DNA of 64,000 nucleotides from Methanobacteriota archaeon (GTDB taxonomy: Archaea; Thermoplasmatota; Thermoplasmata; SG8-5; DAIRED01): contig JAZDNO010000026.1 of assembly GCA_043799545.1 (NCBI GenBank), forward strand, positions 1 through 64,000, in the 5' to 3' direction. The notes under the pieces were generated by a model. It searched no databases. It was given only the letters and a program-made list of their open reading frames with translations, and was not told where the DNA came from. The first letter of the stretch is position 1. Every line of letters begins with the position of its first letter. A program made the translations under genes and the position numbers. This document shows, piece by piece, positions 1-37,602 of this stretch.

Positions 1-1585
1 AATATTTAATCATGCCCATATTTATCAATTCGTACCCGAACTTGCGGTAGTAATCGCGCACGCCGACGCCGCTGGTCACGACTATCTGGCCAGCCCCGGA
101 TTTCCTCGCGATTTCCTCGGCCGTTTCGAGCAGCCGGGCGCCGTATTTCCTGTGCTGATATTCGTCCGCCGCGGCGCGGCCGATTGGCACCATTTGCCCG
201 AAGATTTTCAGCTCGCGGACGAGCGCTACGTGCCTTTCTTCGGGGGCGTTTTCCTGCCCAAACGCCTCCCTCCGCGCATCGGGCGAGGCCATCCTCAGGC
301 GCAGGTAGCCGACGAGCGCGTCCGACTCTGGCTCGTCGAAGGAGAGGAAGTGCTCTGTGCCTCCGGACGCTTCGTAGGAGATGCTGTTTTCCATTATCTG
401 GCTCTCGTCGATGCTGCCTCCGTCGAGCAGAACATGCCCCGCCTCGCGGCAGCGTATGCACCGGCATTTCTTTCCCTGCCTGGCCAGCTCCTCCTTGGCG
501 AGGGTGCGAACGTGGCTCTTCTTCACGCCGTCCGCGATGAGCTGCGCTGGGATATCGCGCTGTATCCTCTGTATTCGGACCCACGGCGGCAGCTTCGGTT
601 TCACGATGGCCAGCAGCTTTACGACGTCCCCGGTGCCATACGGCTTGTAACGGCCAGACTCCCATTCCGCGTGCAGCTTCGTCCCAGGCATCACGAGCGT
701 CGGGTATATCTTGAGCATATCTGGCTTGAACGATTCATCCTCGAAAAGCCTCATGAACATGGCGGCGTCGCTCTCCACGGTAGCCCCGGGCAGCCCGGGC
801 ATCATGTGGTACCCGACCTTGAAGCCAGCGTCTTTCGCGAGGCGTGTAGCCCGCTCCGTCGCCGCAACGTCGTGGCCGCGCTCCACGCGCTTCAGAATCG
901 CATCGTCGAGGGACTGGACGCCCATCTCGATCCTCGTTCCTCCGAGCCGAAGTGTCTCGATGTTCTGCGCCGGTCCGATGCAGTCGGGCCTCGTCTCCAC
1001 AGTCAAGCCTATGCATCTGGCCGGAGCTGCCTCGTTGAGCCCCTGCGCCCCCTCCAGCGTTGCGGACTCGCGCCCGTTCATCGCGTCCAGGCACCTGCGC
1101 ACGAACGTTTCCCTGTACTCCCAAGGCCTTGAAGTGAACGTCCCGCCCATGATTATCAGGTCTATCTTGTCGACCGGATGGCCTATCGCCGAGAGCTGGC
1201 TCAGACGGGCGGAGACCTGCCTGAACGGGTCGTACTCGTTCTGACCGGCTCTGAGCGCTGCAGGCTCGTGCCCTGTATACGACTGAGGCGTTCCCACGCC
1301 AGTGCCCCCGGGGCAGTACGCGCACCTGCCGTGAGGGCAGTCCGCCGGCGAGGTCATGACGGCGACGACGGCGACTCCGCTAGCCGAGCGCACGGGCTTG
1401 ATGCGGAGCAGCGGCTCGAAACGCTCGCGCTCCTCGCCGGACAGCCTTTCCAGTATGTCGGCGTTCGTCGGCAGCGAAGCCATGCGGTGCCTGCTGCAGA
1501 GGCGCATCTTCGCGCGCTCCACGTCCGGACCCGTTTTCAGCTTGCCAGACCGTATCTCATCTATGATCTCATCGAAGTAATCCAC
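1..1585 (-). CDS. elp3: Elongator Elp3-type tRNA U34 carboxymethyltransferase (radical SAM + GNAT), 3' end runs off the window
   Basis: Not in the ORF track because there is no stop in the window. Manual translation from GTG at 1585: MDYFDEIIDEIRSG...IKPVRSASGVAVVAVMTSPADCPHGRCAYCPGG...PQSYTGHEPAA. Window edge reads IVVTSGVGVRDYYRKFGY, the Elp3 GNAT tail. Confidence 0.93.
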   Translation of the reverse strand, partial: MDYFDEIIDEIRSGKLKTGPDVERAKMRLCSRHRMASLPTNADILERLSGEERERFEPLLRIKPVRSASGVAVVAVMTSPADCPHGRCAYCPGGTGVGTPQSYTGHEPAALRAGQNEYDPFRQVSARLSQLSAIGHPVDKIDLIIMGGTFTSRPWEYRETFVRRCLDAMNGRESATLEGAQGLNEAAPARCIGLTVETRPDCIGPAQNIETLRLGGTRIEMGVQSLDDAILKRVERGHDVAATERATRLAKDAGFKVGYHMMPGLPGATVESDAAMFMRLFEDESFKPDMLKIYPTLVMPGTKLHAEWESGRYKPYGTGDVVKLLAIVKPKLPPWVRIQRIQRDIPAQLIADGVKKSHVRTLAKEELARQGKKCRCIRCREAGHVLLDGGSIDESQIMENSISYEASGGTEHFLSFDEPESDALVGYLRLRMASPDARREAFGQENAPEERHVALVRELKIFGQMVPIGRAAADEYQHRKYGARLLETAEEIARKSGAGQIVVTSGVGVRDYYRKFGYELINMGMIKY

Positions 1586-25003: not shown

Positions 25004-26194
25004 GTGGGCATTCCGTGGACCGTGAAGCGGCACGCGTACACGAAAAGTGAGGCAAAGCTGGCCCTTGCGGCCGCGCACGGCTTGGGGTGCGAACGGGAAT
25101 TTTCCGGAAAAGCGGGGGCGCTCGATGTGGCCAGGCGCATGGGTTGCGTCCAGTCAGACCCCCTCGATGTGGCCGGGAGGAACCACGACCTGACGCTTCA
25201 AAGCAGGGTGAAAGGATACCGCCCGATGCACCTGCATGACCTGTGTTACAAAGATAGGTCTCTATTCGAGTATTACTGCAAGATGGCGTCGATAATGCCC
25301 ATCGAGGCTTGGCCAGAGTTTGGCGCGTTCCGTGAGAAGTGGGGCAAGAAGCTGGCGCCGTTTTTTAGGGAGCATGCACGCGAGACCCGGGAGGTCCTCG
25401 TCGCGCTTGAGGACGGCCCCATCTCTTCCCGCGGTTTCAAGGGGGCGAAGAAGGTCGACTGGTGGTGGGGGAAGACCAACGTGTACAAGGTCGTCTTGGA
25501 GCACCTGTTCTTGACTGGCCGGGCCATAATCGCCCGCAGAGACGCCGGGGTGAAGAGCTACGGGTTGGCTGAAAAACTTGTACCGCGGGCGCTCTTCGAT
25601 GCCGAATCGCCCAAGGGAGACACCTTTCGAAAAGCTGTTGCCCTCAGGGTGTGCCGCGCATCGAGGCTTGCGGCATCGTCCAGCTCCCCGGAGCAGTGGA
25701 CAATGGTCGGGAAAAGCAAATGCGTCGGCGAGACGCTAGCTGCCCTGGAACGGGACGGTAAACTAATCAAGCTCGAGCTGGATGGGTGGAAGGGATCCCT
25801 CTACGCCCCAATCGAAAATGAGAACATCTGGAAAGAGCCGCCCGGATTCGGGGAGGACGCCGCCCGGTTCCTCGCCCCTCTGGACCCGCTGCTTTGGAAC
25901 AGAAAACTGTTTTCCGTAATCTACGGTCACGATTACGTCTGGGAGGTATACAAGAAGGCTCACGAGCGCAGGTGGGGCTACTACTGCCTGCCGGTGATGT
26001 TCGATGGCGATTACGTCGGTCTCATAGAGCCCTGGTACGGCAAAAAGGAGAGACGGCTGGAGATAAGGAGCTTCCACCTGCTGGACAGAAATGTCCAAAG
26101 GGGGAGGCTGAAGCGCGCGCTCACGGATGAGCTGACCAGCTTCGCCAGTTACCTCGGCGCGGAGAAGGTTCTGGCGGGAAAGGTAAAGCTCTAG
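25004..26194 (+). CDS. YcaQ/AlkZ (HTH_42) family DNA glycosylase-like protein
   Basis: MGCVQSDPLDVAGRNHDLTLQSR (QxD motif), LFEYY, FLAPLDPLLWNR, YVWEVY...RRWGYYCLP. Confidence 0.88.
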   Translation: MGIPWTVKRHAYTKSEAKLALAAAHGLGCEREFSGKAGALDVARRMGCVQSDPLDVAGRNHDLTLQSRVKGYRPMHLHDLCYKDRSLFEYYCKMASIMPIEAWPEFGAFREKWGKKLAPFFREHARETREVLVALEDGPISSRGFKGAKKVDWWWGKTNVYKVVLEHLFLTGRAIIARRDAGVKSYGLAEKLVPRALFDAESPKGDTFRKAVALRVCRASRLAASSSSPEQWTMVGKSKCVGETLAALERDGKLIKLELDGWKGSLYAPIENENIWKEPPGFGEDAARFLAPLDPLLWNRKLFSVIYGHDYVWEVYKKAHERRWGYYCLPVMFDGDYVGLIEPWYGKKERRLEIRSFHLLDRNVQRGRLKRALTDELTSFASYLGAEKVLAGKVKL

Positions 26195-27294
26195 CCCAGG
26201 AACTTCCCGTCCTTGTATATCAGCTTCCCATCGGCAAATATCTTACCGCCCTTCCTCATGTCCTTCAGGATGTCCCAGTGTATCGCCGAATCGTTCTTCG
26301 CGCCCGTCTCCGGGTAGCAGGCGCCGAGCGCCATGTGGACCGTGCCGCCCATCTTCTCGTCGAAGAGCATGTTCTTCGTGAACGTCGTGATGCCCGGGTT
26401 CGTCCCTATGGCGACCTCGCCCAGCCTCACGGCGCCCTTGTCGGCCTTCAGCAGCGTCTTCAGCAACTCCTCGCCCTTGGCCGCGCTGGCCTTGACGACC
26501 TTGCCGTCCTTGAACGTCAGCCGGATGTCCTCGATTTCTCGCCCCATGTATATGCCTGGATATGTGAATCGGATCGTGCCGTTGACCGAGTCCTCGACCG
26601 GCCCCGTGAAGACCTCCCCGTCGGGCAGGTTTATCTGGCCGTCGCAGTTTATCCATTTGCGGCCCGCCACTGACATCTTCAGGTCCGTGTCCAGGCCTAC
26701 GAATCGCATCTCCCTTGCCCTGTCGAGCCGGGCCACCATTTTGTCTTGCATCTTGGAAACCTTCTTCCACTCCGCGATGGGGTCGGCCCTGTCGGCCAGG
26801 CAAGACGAGAAAACGAACCTCTCATAGTCGGAGAGGGACATCGAGCCCTCCTGCGCGTCCGCGTTTCCGGGGAACGGCACGGCGACCCATCTGAAGTCGC
26901 CCTTGGCCGTGCGCTCCATCATGGTCTTCATCAGGCCGGCGTTCGCGACGGAGCCCATGCGCATCTTCTCCGGCGGTATTCCGGTCATGCTCCTGGTGTT
27001 GGTGTCGAACGAGATGCCTATCATCGCGTCGGCGTTCTCGTAGAGGTATTTCTTGAAGGGCGACACGTGCTTGATTTGCTCGTCCGTCGCGTTCTCGAAG
27101 AAGATGTTGCTCAGGCCATCGATTCCAGCCAGCACTGTCGTGTAGCCCCCCGCTTTGACGACCTCCCTATAAAGCTCCCTGATGAATGGAGCCGCTTCGG
27201 AGGCCCCAGCAATCATGACCTCGTCCCCCTTTTTCACCTTGATCGAGTATCTCACAACCAGCTTCGCCAATTTTTCCACGCGCGGGTCCGCCAT
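26191..27294 (-). CDS. M29 family aminopeptidase (AmpS-like), copy 1
   Basis: NLPDGEVFTGP, LGEVAIGTN, LFDEKMGGTVHMALG, SAIHWD. Confidence 0.93.
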   Translation of the reverse strand: MADPRVEKLAKLVVRYSIKVKKGDEVMIAGASEAAPFIRELYREVVKAGGYTTVLAGIDGLSNIFFENATDEQIKHVSPFKKYLYENADAMIGISFDTNTRSMTGIPPEKMRMGSVANAGLMKTMMERTAKGDFRWVAVPFPGNADAQEGSMSLSDYERFVFSSCLADRADPIAEWKKVSKMQDKMVARLDRAREMRFVGLDTDLKMSVAGRKWINCDGQINLPDGEVFTGPVEDSVNGTIRFTYPGIYMGREIEDIRLTFKDGKVVKASAAKGEELLKTLLKADKGAVRLGEVAIGTNPGITTFTKNMLFDEKMGGTVHMALGACYPETGAKNDSAIHWDILKDMRKGGKIFADGKLIYKDGKFLG

Positions 27295-27344
27295 TGATAC
27301 ACCGGGGCGGGGATGGTGGCGGGGCTATAATTGATTTTCCGTGG

Positions 27345-28448
27345 TCACTTCAGGAACTTGCCGTTCTTGTAAATCAAGCTGCCGTCCCCGTATATCTCGC
27401 CGCCCTTCTTCATGTCCTTAATTAAATCCCAGTGTATGGCGCTGCGGTTTTTAGCCCCGCACTCCAGGTAGGCCGAGCCGAGGGCCATGTGAATCGTCCC
27501 GCCAATCTTCTCGTCGAACAGAATCTTCCTCGTGAACCGCTTTATGCCGTCGTTCGTGCCTATTGCGACTTCGCCCAGGCGCTTCGCCCCGTCGTCGATT
27601 GCGAGCAACGCTTGCAGCAGCTCGTTGCCCTTCGCCGCCGTCGCTTTGACGACCTTTCCCTTCTTGAAAACGAGCCTGACATCCTCTATCTCCTTCCCTC
27701 TGAAGACTCCGGGGAACGTGAATCTGATGCGACCCTCGACGCTGTCCTCCACCGGCGCTGAAAAGACCTCGCCGCTGGGCATGTTGTGCTTCCCGTCGCT
27801 GTTCATCCATCTGCGGCCCTTGAGCGACATGGATATCTCGGTGTCCTCGCCGTAGAATTCCAGCTTTTTCACGCCGTTCAGATACTCGACCATCCTCTGC
27901 TGCCTAGCGGAGACCTTCTTCCACTCGGCCACAGGGTCGCTCCGGTCCACCATGCAGGCCCCGTAAACGAAGTCCTCGTACTCTGAAAGCGACATGCTGG
28001 CCTCCTGGGCCAGACCGTTGGTCGGAAAGACCAGGCCGCACCATTTCAGCTTTCCGGCGGCGCTGCGCCTCTCGTGCACATCCTTGGCCTCCATGCCTGC
28101 AGCGGAAACCAAAGCCAGCTTCCTGGAATCCACGCCGGACATCGCACGCGTGTTCGAGTCCGCGGATATGCCTATCGTGGCATCCAGGTTCTCAGAGAGG
28201 AACTTCCTGAAGGGCGATTTGAAAGCCAACTGTTCCGGTCCCGCCTCCTCGAAGAAAATCTCGTTCGCGCGCTCGAAAACAACGTTCATCTGCGGGTGGC
28301 CTCCCGCTTTAATAACCTCTCGGAAAATCTCCAATGCCAGCGGCTCGGCGATTGGCGGTGCGGTGATGAGCACCTTATCGCCTTTTTTGCAGTAAATAGA
28401 GTAGTTCACGACAAGCTTCGCAAGCTTTTCCACGCGCGGGTCCGCCAT
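27345..28448 (-). CDS. M29 family aminopeptidase (AmpS-like), copy 2
   Basis: NMPSGEVFSAP, LGEVAIGTN, LFDEKIGGTIHMALG, SAIHWD; same length (367 aa) as copy 1. Confidence 0.93.
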   Translation of the reverse strand: MADPRVEKLAKLVVNYSIYCKKGDKVLITAPPIAEPLALEIFREVIKAGGHPQMNVVFERANEIFFEEAGPEQLAFKSPFRKFLSENLDATIGISADSNTRAMSGVDSRKLALVSAAGMEAKDVHERRSAAGKLKWCGLVFPTNGLAQEASMSLSEYEDFVYGACMVDRSDPVAEWKKVSARQQRMVEYLNGVKKLEFYGEDTEISMSLKGRRWMNSDGKHNMPSGEVFSAPVEDSVEGRIRFTFPGVFRGKEIEDVRLVFKKGKVVKATAAKGNELLQALLAIDDGAKRLGEVAIGTNDGIKRFTRKILFDEKIGGTIHMALGSAYLECGAKNRSAIHWDLIKDMKKGGEIYGDGSLIYKNGKFLK

Positions 28449-32822: not shown

Positions 32823-33827
32823 TTGGTGCGGGCAATGATCACCGTCAAAAACGTCACAAAAAGATACCGGAAGAACGCCAAGAGCAGCTCGTGGAAGACA
32901 AGGGTCAAACAGATGTTCAGCGACAAGAAACGCGAATCCATGACTGCGCTGAACAACGTCGATTTCCAGGCGAACGGCGGAGAGATAATCGGAATCCTCG
33001 GGCCGAACGGCGCGGGAAAGACCACGCTTTTAAAAATAATCGCGGGGTTGCTTGTGCCAGAGGTCGGCCAAGGCGAGGTCAACGGATTCGACATCGTCAA
33101 GGACAGGGAAAAGGTGAGGACGTCGGTGAACTTCCTCATGAGCGGCGGCTGGGTCATCTTCGATTACAAATTCTCCGTGCGGGACAATCTTAGGTTTTGG
33201 GGGGTCTACCAGGGGTTGAGCCTGAAGGACGTCGACCAGAGGGTGGCGGAGGTTTTAAAGGTTGTCGAGCTGGAGGAGAAGAAAGACGAATTCCCCGAAA
33301 ACATTTCCGCCGGGATGAGGCAGAGGATGAACCTTGCCAGATGCCTGCTCGTCGACCGCCCGGTGTATCTGCTGGACGAGCCGACGGCCAACCTGGACCC
33401 CTACTCGGCCGAATTCATTAGGAAGTTCGTGAAGGAGAAGCTCCGAACGGACAATAAGACAATCGTCCTCGCGACCCACAACCTCTGGGAGGCCGAGCTG
33501 CTGTGCGACAGAATCGTCATCCTTAACAAGGGCGAGGTTCTGCTCGCGGACAAAACGGAGGAGATAAAAAGAAAGATCGGCAAGGAGGTGGCCATCATCG
33601 AGATCGAAAGTGAGGACGCGGAACTGCTGAAAACTTTCCGGGGGCTGGATTTCGTGGACAGCGCCACGCTGGAGGGAAACCGCCTGCGAATATTCGGCGA
33701 CGTTAAGAGAAACCTCCCCCGCATCATCGACATCTGCCGGGAGCGCACGACCGTCACAAGCGTGAACGTCCAGGAGCTCTCGCTGAACGACATATTCATC
33801 CAGCTGGTGAGCAGGGGTGAAACATGA
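32823..33827 (+). CDS. ABC transporter ATP-binding subunit (export type)
   Basis: Walker A GPNGAGKTT, signature variant ISAGMRQR, Walker B VYLLDEP, ATH switch. Confidence 0.93.
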   Translation: MVRAMITVKNVTKRYRKNAKSSSWKTRVKQMFSDKKRESMTALNNVDFQANGGEIIGILGPNGAGKTTLLKIIAGLLVPEVGQGEVNGFDIVKDREKVRTSVNFLMSGGWVIFDYKFSVRDNLRFWGVYQGLSLKDVDQRVAEVLKVVELEEKKDEFPENISAGMRQRMNLARCLLVDRPVYLLDEPTANLDPYSAEFIRKFVKEKLRTDNKTIVLATHNLWEAELLCDRIVILNKGEVLLADKTEEIKRKIGKEVAIIEIESEDAELLKTFRGLDFVDSATLEGNRLRIFGDVKRNLPRIIDICRERTTVTSVNVQELSLNDIFIQLVSRGET

Positions 33828-34681
33828 TAAAGCACAGCCTCTCGCTCTCGGAAAAGCTCGAAGTAGTATATATTTCGATGTGGAGGTACGGGAAGTTAAT
33901 GACCAGATTTAAAACGAGCTTCTTCTTTTCCATAGTCGCCATGTTCGTCTCGATTACGACATTCTACTACTTCGGACAGGTGTTCGGGGACGCCACTGCC
34001 GTGGCCGTTGAAGACTACGGTGGCAACTACTTTTCCTATGTGCTCATCGGACTCGCGTTCAATCAGTTCGCTGTCACTAGCCTCAGCACCTATCTCGCGA
34101 CCGTACAAAATATATATTGGTCCAACTGGCTCGAGCTGATACTGACAGCCCCCATGCGCCTCAAGACATATTTCGTCGCTGCGATGTCCTGGGCTTACAC
34201 GTACTCGACTATCCTCATCGCCTTTTACTTCATCATCGGGGTCGGGATATTCGGGGCCGCGATTGCATTCCCCCCAGGCTGGTACGTCATCATACTCATC
34301 CTGTTCTTGACTGTCCTAAGCATCTCGGGCATCGGTTTGATGGCCGCAAGCACTTTCATGCTGTTGAACGCGAAAGGCCAGGTGGAGCCCATCAGCTGGT
34401 TCGTGGGCACGGTTTCCGCCCTTGTCTGCGGGGTCTATTATCCGCCCGAATTGCTGCCCCCGTCCATCCATGCCATCTCATACATCTTCCCGCACACGTA
34501 TGCCCTCGAGGGGCTGCGAGAGATACTCCTGAACGGGAAAGGCCTCATGGACCCGTCCATCCAAATGATAATCCTGATATTGGCAATATTCTCCATGATA
34601 CTCCTGCCGCTGGGAATGGCGATGTTCAAGTCAGGAATTAAAAAGGCTGAGAAGGATGGAACCCTGGCAAGATGGGTTTGA
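33824..34681 (+). CDS. ABC-2 type permease
   Basis: Six TM segments; LELILTAP; GVYYPPELLP...PHTYALEGLR; ATGA overlap with the ATPase gene. Confidence 0.9.
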   Translation: MIKHSLSLSEKLEVVYISMWRYGKLMTRFKTSFFFSIVAMFVSITTFYYFGQVFGDATAVAVEDYGGNYFSYVLIGLAFNQFAVTSLSTYLATVQNIYWSNWLELILTAPMRLKTYFVAAMSWAYTYSTILIAFYFIIGVGIFGAAIAFPPGWYVIILILFLTVLSISGIGLMAASTFMLLNAKGQVEPISWFVGTVSALVCGVYYPPELLPPSIHAISYIFPHTYALEGLREILLNGKGLMDPSIQMIILILAIFSMILLPLGMAMFKSGIKKAEKDGTLARWV

Positions 34682-34806: not shown

Positions 34807-34879
34807 TGAGATGTAACATTCACGATTCACCCTGACATGCAAAAGCATGTGTGTGGTAACCAAGAAAGGGAGGTTAAAA

Positions 34880-35017
34880 ATGCCAGGAGACGGAAATGGA
34901 TTCGACCCCATCGACCCGGGCCAGGGATACAAGCACAGGCACGGACACGAAGCAACCGGATGCGGATGCGTAGAGGTTGGTTCCATATACGCAGTATTCG
35001 ACCCACAGCCGGTTTAA
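34880..35017 (+). CDS. Putative RiPP precursor peptide, 45 aa: MPGDGNGFDPIDPGQGYKHRHGHEATGCGCVEVGSIYAVFDPQPV
   Basis: Below the ORF-track cutoff. SD GGGAGGT at 34868-34874 is 5 nt before the ATG; the ORF lies between an ABC exporter and two rSAM/SPASM genes; an 8-bp hairpin overlaps the stop. Confidence 0.75.
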   Translation: MPGDGNGFDPIDPGQGYKHRHGHEATGCGCVEVGSIYAVFDPQPV

Positions 35018-35141
35018 TCGATTTAAACCGACGGAGAAAAACTCTTCCAATCTTTCTATAATTATTAATAACTGATAATAATAGGGAGCAGCGCGGGCTG
35101 CCAGAGGTGGTTTCACGGAAAAACCGAAACTCGCAAAGGCT

Positions 35142-36491
35142 GTGGTCGTCAAGAAGAAGAACGGAAAGAGCGCGTTCATTCACCCCGACATTCCCAAATG
35201 GCTCGCTTTCCGCGCCGAGGGGGCCCGGACCCTGGAGCTGTGCGACGGAACGCGGAGCGAGCGGGACATCATCGAGACAATTTCGAGGGAATTCAACGAG
35301 CCCATGGAGTATGTGGGGAAGGGAGTCGCCGGCCTACTTAGCCACTGCGAGAAGCAGGGATTCTTCCAGGATGTCACCCCGAAGAGACCGGACGCCCTGC
35401 CAGTGGAGATGAAGATACTCTACCTGAACATCACCCGGGAGTGCAACCTGAGGTGCACCTATTGCTATGCGAGCGCGGGCGCCCAGCGGGAAAAAGAGCT
35501 GACTCTGGAGGAGATAAAGAAGCTCCTGAGCGAGTTCCACGCCCTTGGAAAAGGGACGCGGCAGAACGTCATAATAACTGGCGGGGAGCCGCTGCTGAGG
35601 AAAGACTTCTGGCAGATTGCCGAATATGCGAGGTCGCTGGGGCTCGTCCTTGTGCTTTCCTCAAACGGACTCCTCATCGACAGGGAGACTGCAAGGAAAT
35701 TGGGTAAGCTCTTCGGCGGCGTGCAGATCAGCCTCGACGGCGACAGGGAGATGCACGACAAATGCCGGGGCAAGGGGTCCTTCGACGGGGCGACGAGGGG
35801 CATAGAAAACCTGGTCGAAGCCGGCATCACGCCGTCGATATCTGCCACTGTGACAAAAGAGAACTTCAAAAAGCTGGACAACCTGTGGGACGTGTGCGAC
35901 AAGTACAAAATAAAGCACGTGAAGACCAACCCCATCATCCCCCTAGGCCGGGCGGAGAGCGACAGAGACGAGATAATGCTGTCGAGGGACGAATACATAG
36001 AGCTCTGGAGGGCGACCAAGCAGCAGCTCAAGAAGCGCCGCCTGGAGGTCACGATAGATAACGAGCGGTCCATTTTCTCGGGAGGCACGTCGTTCAAGGG
36101 CACGGGCAACTCTTGCGGAGCCGGCCGGACGTCCATCAGCTTCGAATCCAACGGGGACGCCTATCCGTGCCAGGCATCGCATCTCCCGCAGTTCCTCTGC
36201 GGTAACATAAGGGAGAAATCTCTGGAAGAGATCGTGACGGGGGCGGAAGTTCTGAAGGACTGGATGGGCCGCTCAATCAACGACATTCCGGGATGCAGCT
36301 CCTGCGAATGGAAGATGTACTGCGGCGGCGGCTGCTTCCTGCAGGCGGCTCTGGGCCACGGGACCGTGCACGCGCCGGATGTCTATTGCGACGTTTACAA
36401 GTTCGAATACGAGGAGACGTTTTGGGAATTTGTGGACAAAAGGGAAAAAGAACAGGAGGAATCAAATGACGGGCAAGCAGCCAAAGTTTGA
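35142..36491 (+). CDS. Radical SAM/SPASM peptide maturase with N-terminal PqqD/RRE-like domain
   Basis: GARTLELCDGTRSERDIIETISREF (PqqD-like wHTH); CNLRCTYC; TGGEPLLR; QISLDG; SPASM CGAG...YPC...CSSCEWKMYCGGGC...YC. True start may lie slightly upstream. Confidence 0.9.
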   Translation: MVVKKKNGKSAFIHPDIPKWLAFRAEGARTLELCDGTRSERDIIETISREFNEPMEYVGKGVAGLLSHCEKQGFFQDVTPKRPDALPVEMKILYLNITRECNLRCTYCYASAGAQREKELTLEEIKKLLSEFHALGKGTRQNVIITGGEPLLRKDFWQIAEYARSLGLVLVLSSNGLLIDRETARKLGKLFGGVQISLDGDREMHDKCRGKGSFDGATRGIENLVEAGITPSISATVTKENFKKLDNLWDVCDKYKIKHVKTNPIIPLGRAESDRDEIMLSRDEYIELWRATKQQLKKRRLEVTIDNERSIFSGGTSFKGTGNSCGAGRTSISFESNGDAYPCQASHLPQFLCGNIREKSLEEIVTGAEVLKDWMGRSINDIPGCSSCEWKMYCGGGCFLQAALGHGTVHAPDVYCDVYKFEYEETFWEFVDKREKEQEESNDGQAAKV

Positions 36492-37602
36492 AATCAAGAG
36501 CGGGCGAATTTACTACGAGAACATACCGCCGGGAACGCCTATGTCCCAGCTGATGACGGGATTTTTCAAGGACAAAATAGAGAACGAGGGGATGGGTCCG
36601 CTGATGGCGCAGTGGATAGCGACCAGCAAATGCAATTTCAGGTGCCCGCATTGCGGCACCGCGGCCTCTGAGGCAAAGCCCGACGAGCTGAGCTGGGCCC
36701 AAATCAAACCGGTCATAGAGGATTTGGCAAGCATGGGATGCAAGACTTTCACGATGACCGGGGGGGAGCCGATACTGCGACCGGATTTCTGGAAGATCGT
36801 GGACCACGCCCACGCCAACGGGATGAAGACCGGATTCGTGACGAACGCCTGGGCCATAAAGGATTTCGAGGACGAGCTGAGGCGAGCCAAGATAGAGACC
36901 ATCCTGGTCAGCATCGACGGCTACAGAGAGAACCATGACAAAATCCGCGGGATGCCCGGCTCGTACAAGAAGTGCCTCGAGGCCATCCGGTTCCTGAAGG
37001 ACATCGGCACCCCCGTGGTGGGCGTGTCGACGGTCTACATGAAGGACAACGTCGATTTCCTGCCGCAAATCGTGGACGAGGCGGCCAAAGCCGGCGCGGA
37101 CAGGCATCGCCTCCAGGCCATCGTGCCGGAGGGGCGCTCGAAGGGCAAGGGTAACAGCCGGGAGGAGATAAAAAAGGCCATAAAATTCGTCTACGACGCC
37201 AGGAAGCGAGGGGTCAACATCGAGGTGTGCGAGGCGCACGGATGGCTCGGGCCGCTTGACGGCATCCTGAGGGCCAACTTCTACTGCGGCATCGGCCTGA
37301 ACACGCTGTGCATAATGCAGAACGGCGACGTCATGGGCTGCTCCCTCATGGACTACCCGGACAAGACAGAGGGGAACGTGAAGGACAAAAGCATCAAGGA
37401 CATATGGTTCAACGGTTTCAAGATGTACAGGCAGCCTACGCTCCCGGACCTCCCCAAGGAATGCACCGACTGCAAGCAGCTCATCGAGTGCAGGGGCGGA
37501 TGCTGGCTCCACCGCATGAACAACAACTTCTGCTTCCTCCCCATGGCCGTGGAGGTCGCGCGAGAATCTGGGGATTTCCCCAATCTCGACGAGAAGTACT
37601 GA
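36466..37602 (+). CDS. Second radical SAM/SPASM enzyme (no RRE)
   Basis: SD CAGGAGGA before ATG 36466; CNFRCPHC; TGGEPILR; VSIDG; SPASM CGIG...MGC...CTDCKQLIECRGGC...FC; overlaps the first rSAM by 26 nt. Confidence 0.92.
   Translation: MTGKQPKFEIKSGRIYYENIPPGTPMSQLMTGFFKDKIENEGMGPLMAQWIATSKCNFRCPHCGTAASEAKPDELSWAQIKPVIEDLASMGCKTFTMTGGEPILRPDFWKIVDHAHANGMKTGFVTNAWAIKDFEDELRRAKIETILVSIDGYRENHDKIRGMPGSYKKCLEAIRFLKDIGTPVVGVSTVYMKDNVDFLPQIVDEAAKAGADRHRLQAIVPEGRSKGKGNSREEIKKAIKFVYDARKRGVNIEVCEAHGWLGPLDGILRANFYCGIGLNTLCIMQNGDVMGCSLMDYPDKTEGNVKDKSIKDIWFNGFKMYRQPTLPDLPKECTDCKQLIECRGGCWLHRMNNNFCFLPMAVEVARESGDFPNLDEKY

Follow-up and report, generated by a model that had tools for sequence, protein, structure and literature searches.

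The architecture of a short precursor gene accompanied by an RRE-bearing radical SAM/SPASM enzyme and an exporter is already known. In the hairpin sactipeptide systems of Actinobacteria, StsA/StsB(/StsC) and BlaA/BlaB, nested Cys-to-Gly sactionines are formed by StsB, an enzyme that is MftC-like overall, on the StsA core CxCxC-x4-GxGxG, and by BlaB on C13-x-C15...G20-x-G22 of BlaA (PMC10288494). Six active-site-proximal residues have been proposed as predictors (Precord et al., PMC10288494). CteB of the CteA/CteB system (SCIFF, thermocellin; PDB 5WHY/5WGG) makes a non-alpha (ranthionine) thioether, not a sactionine. Mycofactocin (MftA/MftC) and PQQ (PqqA/PqqD/PqqE) likewise involve RRE-dependent radical SAM/SPASM enzymes and a short peptide with an essential Tyr. 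Characterized archaeal RiPPs are few. The only archaeal enzyme of this type that has been studied experimentally is that of CrpA/CrpC from Methanococcus voltae, an RRE-bearing SPASM radical SAM enzyme that installs thioether cross-links, and its substrate is a protein (PMC13692751).

We analyzed a 64,000-nt stretch of DNA from an archaeon of the Thermoplasmata (the whole stretch is called the window below) and identified a locus in which genes for an ABC ATPase, an ABC-2 permease, a 45-aa peptide (P0001) and two radical SAM/SPASM enzymes (A and B) follow each other on the + strand (Table 1). We consider it probable, though well short of certain, that P0001 is a Methanomassiliicoccales RiPP precursor in which enzyme A makes Cys thioether (sactionine-type) bridges and enzyme B introduces a second radical modification. 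New are the precursor family, the obligate second SPASM enzyme without an RRE, and the archaeal host. None of the three genes (P0001, A and B) is covered by a curated model, and the literature searched contained no publication on clusters of this kind in Methanomassiliicoccales.

Like the StsA and BlaA precursors, P0001 has a closely spaced C-x-C with a conserved Gly shortly after it, and enzyme A resembles StsB in being an RRE-dependent radical SAM/SPASM enzyme of the MftC/StsB neighborhood. Unlike in the Sts and Bla systems, where the RRE is separate, that of enzyme A is fused to it, a second SPASM enzyme is present, and the host is archaeal. P0001 also lacks the G-x-G-x-G acceptor ladder and has an additional conserved acid/Tyr/Phe segment. 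Its core contains C28-x-C30 and G34 with no second Gly in register, and the Cys spacing varies (C-x-x-C instead of C-x-C in one ortholog, 0-9 residues across the family). CteB is the nearest solved structure and the best full-length structural match of enzyme A, at an identity of only ~20%, but a CteA-type precursor has six Cys and P0001 has two. The ranthipeptide type of core, with either six Cys within ~45 aa or repeats of C-x3-D, is not seen in P0001, in which C28-x3-E32 occurs once, with a spacing that is not kept in the C-x-x-C ortholog. The Crp enzyme is similar to enzyme A by description; its substrate, however, is a large Cys-rich protein, its links are ranthionines, and it comes from a different archaeal lineage. 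In contrast to mycofactocin and PQQ, the locus has an exporter next to it and no further mft or pqq genes, and it is patchily distributed. P0001 is without the C-terminal Val-Tyr of mycofactocin, and its E32-x4-Y37 differs from the E-x3-Y of the PQQ core.

Table 1. Coordinates of the features of the precursor locus in the window.
Feature	Position	Strand	Evidence
ABC transporter ATP-binding subunit (DrrA-like)	32823..33827	+	PF00005, DrrA1-3_C, TIGR01188 227.8 bits
ABC-2 type permease, probable partner in export or immunity	33824..34681	+	PF01061 ABC2_membrane, E 1.3e-12
A/T-rich TATA-box-like element, putative archaeal promoter of P0001	34793..34807	+	Sequence; predicted
Shine-Dalgarno (SD) site GGGAGGT	34868..34874	+	Sequence; 5 nt before ATG 34880
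45-aa precursor peptide gene (P0001)	34880..35017	+	Translation, orthologs, dN/dS, family alignment
P0001 putative leader	residues ~1-26		[FY]-x-P-[IV] motif at 8-11
P0001 putative core	residues ~27-45		C28, C30, E32, G34, Y37, F40
8-bp hairpin over the P0001 stop codon, then A/T-rich tract	35010..35030	+	Folding
Radical SAM/SPASM maturase A, N-terminal PqqD-like RRE (aa 1-71)	35142..36491	+	Pfam, NCBIfam, AF2, Foldseek
Radical SAM/SPASM maturase B without full RRE	36466..37602	+	Overlaps the end of enzyme A by 26 nt

The precursor gene and its orthologs

The P0001 gene begins with ATG at 34880 and ends with a TAA stop codon (35015-35017). The ORF and its SD site had been noticed in an initial annotation made from the sequence alone. 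Both are present, the translation is identical to the one quoted there, and the motif residues were all numbered correctly (H19/H21/H23, C28-G-C30, Y17/Y37/F40, and F-D-P at 8-10 and 40-42). The N-terminal part (about aa 1-26) is rich in Gly, Pro and Asp. The peptide ends in Q-P-V, and Tyr37 lies eight residues before the end. Starting at an alternative in-frame ATG (34847) would lengthen the peptide to 56 aa, and this ATG is without an SD site; the start at 34880 is preferred because of the position of the SD site and the starts of the orthologs. The ORF had been described as missed by the ORF track, which is correct for the track used at the time, but the identical 45-aa protein was already called as a gene in a public protein collection and in the ESM Atlas, as was a 43-aa ortholog on an ENA contig.

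Orthologous small ORFs were identified at two loci. One (L022:6130-6261, - strand, 43 aa, 60% identity) is from another Methanomassiliicoccales MAG (G016, contig DAOVXH010000006.1), in which the enzyme A ortholog is 61% identical. The other (L037:1308-1433, + strand, 41 aa, 53% identity) is from a Thermoplasmata contig that encodes a partial enzyme A ortholog (65% identical). Both ORFs lie directly 5' of the enzyme A ortholog and are oriented with the maturase; the arrangement is alike in the window, where the P0001 gene is 124 nt 5' of enzyme A in the same orientation. The enzymes are syntenic as well, with orthologs 61% (A) and 72% (B) identical. GGAGGT occurs 5-6 nt before the ATG in all three orthologous precursor genes, and more distant precursors are also preceded by GGAGGTG.

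Aligning the three peptides yields 17 invariant positions, including G27-C28-G29, C30, V33-G34, I36-Y37, F40 and P42. Pairwise dN/dS values among the three genes are 0.30-0.50 with pS of 0.44-0.65, so that synonymous sites are near saturation. This pattern indicates selection on the protein rather than on DNA or RNA. Orthologous DNA that is frameshifted yet otherwise conserved was not seen. Judged by sequence comparison, P0001 is a real, conserved, protein-coding gene.

When 5.8 billion proteins were searched with the P0001 peptide, it matched only itself, and no relatives were identified in Pfam, NCBIfam or the ESM Atlas. The intergenic DNA matched no family in Rfam (the sole row, Bacteroides-1, has an E of 0.25 and is far under gathering). 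A six-frame profile search of 401 genomes of the class recovered the window and G016 only, plus one match at chance level. JGI metagenome contigs scanned with a back-translated pattern gave a single match (L038), which is antisense to a membrane protein gene and was rejected as spurious.

The wider precursor family and its distribution

Ten archaeal loci with A-type enzymes supplied the 13 candidate precursors of the family alignment. All 13 share an invariant second Cys, and a first Cys lies 0-9 residues before it in every sequence. The alignment supports these two residues as the best candidates for cross-linking. The position of Tyr37 is kept in 12 of the 13, whereas Y17, listed beside it in the initial annotation, is matched by F or Y in the orthologs only. 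In most of the precursors a Gly is found at +4 relative to the last Cys, and the Tyr37 position is commonly followed by a stretch of hydrophobic or aromatic residues. A leader motif, [FY]-x-P-[IV], occurs in five peptides from four loci. The first F-D-P of P0001 overlaps this motif; the conserved part, however, is [FY]-x-P-[IV] and not F-D-P.

Of the 401 genomes sampled within the class, only four have A-type enzymes (above E 1e-60), and these four belong to one order. A genome of the same genus (G001, 84% complete) has no A-type enzyme. The four genomes contain seven A-type genes, each with an SD-preceded small ORF upstream. Across the related loci the small ORFs are always paired with A-type enzymes, and SD-preceded analogs are present in seven further loci. 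The L047 contig encodes a histidyl-tRNA synthetase with ~50% identity to its counterparts in the same class.

Precursor genes occur as tandem pairs at L047 (2994-3161 and 3375-3548) and L049 (2911-3051 and 3441-3554). At these two metagenomic loci, where both enzymes are present, the cores of the paired peptides are nearly identical and the leaders have diverged. RiPP loci typically show such tandem precursors, as well as several copies of a cluster in one genome.

Several additional units were identified. Contig C2 of the window genome carries a second, A-only locus (G000:C2:144755-146086) whose enzyme is 34-36% identical. Beside it is a gene for a 47-aa candidate precursor (L026:5169-5312, - strand) with C-x3-C followed by G-I-M-I-I-I-G-P-W; close relatives of this type of peptide (L024:5296-5409 and L025:4998-5105, in G006 and G014) lie beside ABC-2 exporters. 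G016 has three A-type genes. Upstream of its orthologous precursor is a truncated copy of enzyme B (L022:6496-7260, - strand; 254 aa, 74% identical) without the CxxxCxxC part, and a divergent third unit has its own 43-aa precursor (L022:7435-7566, + strand), which shares the leader element G-N-G-P-Q-F. At L037, a 386-aa radical SAM protein (L037:1-1163, + strand; Radical_SAM only, no SPASM) is encoded upstream of the precursor. It shows no relationship to A or to B at E 1e-5 and may be an extra tailoring enzyme in that lineage.

More distant A-type homologs (P0007, P0010, P0011 and P0017, ~30-34% identity) were considered as family members and left out of the family definition because their contexts are unrelated. 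P0010 (L039/L040) and P0017 (L043), at ~32-34%, are beside very large secreted PG_binding_1 or Big_5/PKD proteins, or NosD and an ABC-2 transporter. This suggests that, to judge from their contexts, such RRE-SPASM relatives may have proteins, not peptides, as substrates.

Radical SAM/SPASM enzymes

The CxxxCxxC motif of enzyme A consists of C101, C105 and C108, and it is accompanied by seven SPASM Cys (C325, 343, 385, 388, 394, 398 and 416). All ten positions, the three and the seven, are invariant across 36 sequences. Pfam identifies Radical_SAM and SPASM, along with a weak PqqD match that covers aa 27-74 (E 3.8e-4) and narrowly misses the gathering score, and homologs of the enzyme bear a precomputed PF05402 annotation. 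In the AlphaFold2 model (pLDDT 90.5), aa 1-71 form three strands and three helices, and the predicted fold shows the PqqD/RRE topology.

Among NCBIfam models, the StsB sactipeptide maturase family scores highest for enzyme A (190 bits), followed by MftC (166 bits); WgkB, AhbD and DynA also match. The StsB (NF045574) and MftC cutoffs, 625 and 265 bits, are not reached (190 and 165.8 bits). The scores for the ranthipeptide enzymes also fall below their cutoffs (99 of 425 bits for the SCIFF maturase, TIGR03974; 117 of 340 bits for PapB, NF047865), as do those for PqqE (100 bits for A and 89 bits for B, compared to 381). As no curated cutoff is reached, enzyme A lies outside every named family and we infer its cross-linking chemistry. 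The top PDB sequence matches are CteB and then SkfB, and the top Foldseek match is CteB, over the full length including the N-terminal RRE. By all measures available, the nearest relatives of enzyme A are thioether-forming peptide maturases.

We mapped the six proximity residues onto enzyme A via a phmmer alignment to CteB (chain index = paper number + 3), with StsB and CteB as the two references. The residues are Y109, T146, S173, S197, Q344 and A345. Three of six are identical to those of StsB (Y, T, I, S, K, L; shared are Y109, T146 and S197) and one of six to those of CteB (F, F, T, S, H, Q). Positions five and six are Q-A in enzyme A versus K-L in StsB, and the profile is stable within the A clade (Y, [TS], [AS], S, Q, [AS]). 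As a predictor of chemistry, the match of three in six to StsB may be taken as a lead and not as a test.

With two auxiliary clusters to be bound by seven SPASM Cys, one site would have no Cys ligand. One auxiliary cluster of CteB reportedly has an open site, where the substrate Cys binds, and the seven invariant Cys of enzyme A would fit a site of this kind. A predicted complex of enzyme A and the P0001 peptide (score 0.30, mark 0.32) is used neither for nor against binding.

The start of enzyme A is uncertain. Similarity to the N-terminus of the ortholog (P-K-L-A-x-A-V) reaches nine codons upstream of the GTG at 35142, and the frame is open from 35085, with no ATG, GTG or TTG before that GTG (35085-35144). 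An SD-like GAGGTG is located upstream of it at 35104-35109. Translation may begin at a non-canonical start, or the N-terminus may have been shortened recently.

For enzyme B, the start at 36466 was chosen via alignment with the 72% identical ortholog. The enzyme has C56/60/63 and seven further Cys, invariant in 12 sequences. A complete RRE is lacking, since the barrel is preceded by no more than a hairpin and a single helix. The best NCBIfam models are uncharacterized families, plus MftC (136 bits) and StsB. SkfB and SuiB are the nearest structural neighbors, among which is also PqqE. In all four of the further contigs examined, B-type enzymes are directly beside A-type enzymes, with one or two small ORFs that are preceded by GGAGGTG or GAGGTG. 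B-type enzymes are slightly more common in metagenomes. The strict pairing with A, together with conservation of the acid-Gly-Tyr-Phe residues in loci with both enzymes, suggests that enzyme B may carry out a second modification of the P0001 core.

Exporter and flanking genes

ABC-2 exporter orthologs are encoded beside L023 and L050 (at L023 the ATPase is 47% and the permease 40% identical), and weaker ones beside the A-only loci L024 and L025. The exporter is absent from the closest orthologous locus. Thus, a role of the ABC-2 pump in export or immunity is plausible from its placement and is not obligatory. No gene for a leader-removing protease was identified within the cluster. About 6 kb upstream of it, the window encodes two tandem 367-aa paralogous aminopeptidase-like proteins (26191-28448, - strand), both starting with an identical 14-residue N-terminus. 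The gene after enzyme B, on the opposite strand, encodes a CitMHS-type transporter and is probably unrelated to the precursor cluster. The GC content of the cluster is 0.52-0.57, compared with 0.58-0.62 in the flanks, a contrast too weak to indicate recent transfer.

Predicted biosynthesis

The conserved genes and their context support the initial proposal that P0001 is a leader-plus-core precursor for the adjacent RRE-containing radical SAM/SPASM enzyme. We predict that the leader (about aa 1-26) docks on the RRE of enzyme A via [FY]-x-P-[IV] (F8-D-P-I11). Enzyme A would then take a hydrogen from a downstream core residue and join that residue to the sulfur of C30 and of C28. The product could be one or two nested thioether (sactionine-type) bridges in a small hairpin, as in StsA and BlaA, whose C-x-C sulfurs are bound to Gly alpha-carbons a short distance downstream. 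In view of CteB, the acceptor carbon may also be a non-alpha one. By analogy to those peptides G34 is the best candidate acceptor, followed by I36 or Y37. A second radical modification by enzyme B may involve E32 or the Tyr37/Phe40 segment, and the ABC-2 pump might export the product or protect the producer.

More tentatively, P0001 and its 12 relatives may constitute a new archaeal RiPP class, in which A and the RRE-less B install two different cross-links on C-x(0-9)-C...Y, a Cys thioether and a Tyr- or acid-centered link. If true, the Methanomassiliicoccales/Thermoplasmata would gain their first sacti-like peptide natural product. Two different radical reactions by A and B on one 45-mer would be new enzyme chemistry, and the product a possible antimicrobial or signaling peptide from gut- and sediment-associated relatives of methanogens. 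The 13 precursors, with their clear invariant residues, provide a defined substrate set for the uncharacterized A/B pair. Interest centers on both Cys, G34 and Y37 in the core and on [FY]-x-P-[IV] in the leader, rather than on the His triplet or the second F-D-P.

The near-invariant Tyr and the frequent acid at +2 from the last Cys could point to a different chemistry, or to one additional to the Cys thioether. We regard it as unlikely, although deserving of attention, that P0001 is a RiPP precursor with its key chemistry on Tyr37, via carbon or oxygen (PqqE-like to E32, a cyclophane, or MftC-like). The Cys would in that case form a disulfide or position the substrate at the auxiliary cluster, and the product might be cofactor-like rather than an exported toxin. 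Tyr37 is retained in all but one of the 13 precursors, as that reading would expect. Within a subset of nine precursors (the peptide group of the window itself and the remaining loci that encode A together with B), six have an acid at +2 from the last Cys. However, the acid is Asp instead of Glu in L037 and L050, L049 has acids at +1 and +3, L048 has no such acid, and the Glu-Tyr spacing of P0001 is unlike that of PqqA. MftC is the second-best model for both enzymes, and both SuiB and PqqE are among the structural neighbors of B, but PqqE itself scores low for A and for B, and MftC chemistry requires a C-terminal Tyr, which Tyr37 is not. The lack of an exporter at the closest orthologous locus would fit this reading; a core cofactor, on the other hand, would not be expected to have the patchy distribution of this cluster among close relatives. 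The Cys are the most conserved residues, and thioether synthases are the best neighbors of enzyme A in both sequence and structure. These observations favor Cys thioether bridges made by enzyme A.

The initial annotation had suggested a metal-binding product based on three His and two Cys, with the two F-D-P motifs serving as leader and follower docking sites for two enzymes. All of these motifs are present in P0001, two enzymes are encoded, and a distant precursor (L047:2994-3161) has H-K-H in its leader. Nevertheless, H-x-H-x-H falls in a 2-residue insertion that is unique to the window; both orthologs have Q-W-G-[QK]-[DE] here, and the His triplet is found nowhere else in the 13-sequence alignment. 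The metal site is therefore not a family property. The proposed twin docking sites likewise find no support in the comparison, as the second F-D-P is F-L-P in L022 and is not recognizable in the wider family. Cys engaged in thioethers would also no longer be thiolate ligands, and no gene for metal transport or a metal chaperone is linked to the cluster. We thus find the metal-binding proposal improbable. With thioether formation by enzyme A as the preferred reading, the histidines may be a lineage-specific decoration of the leader-core junction.

It is most improbable that P0001 is a chance open frame or the untranslated, non-coding leader of the maturase operon, as might be supposed from its short length and the lack of relatives in Pfam, NCBIfam and the Atlas, because amino acids are conserved in three lineages despite saturated synonymous change, the SD site is kept at a fixed distance, analogous SD-preceded ORFs occur in seven further loci, and no Rfam family matches.

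Promoter and terminator-like elements

The A/T-rich, TATA-like box that may be the promoter of P0001 is ~75-85 nt upstream of the ATG in the window and ~55-70 nt upstream in the two orthologs. The hairpin that spans the stop codon has an MFE of -12.1 kcal/mol (z -1.9) and is marginal, as 9 of 200 shuffled sequences fold equally well. It is a weak candidate for a partial terminator or attenuator. Both orthologs have an oligo-T tract right after the stop codon.
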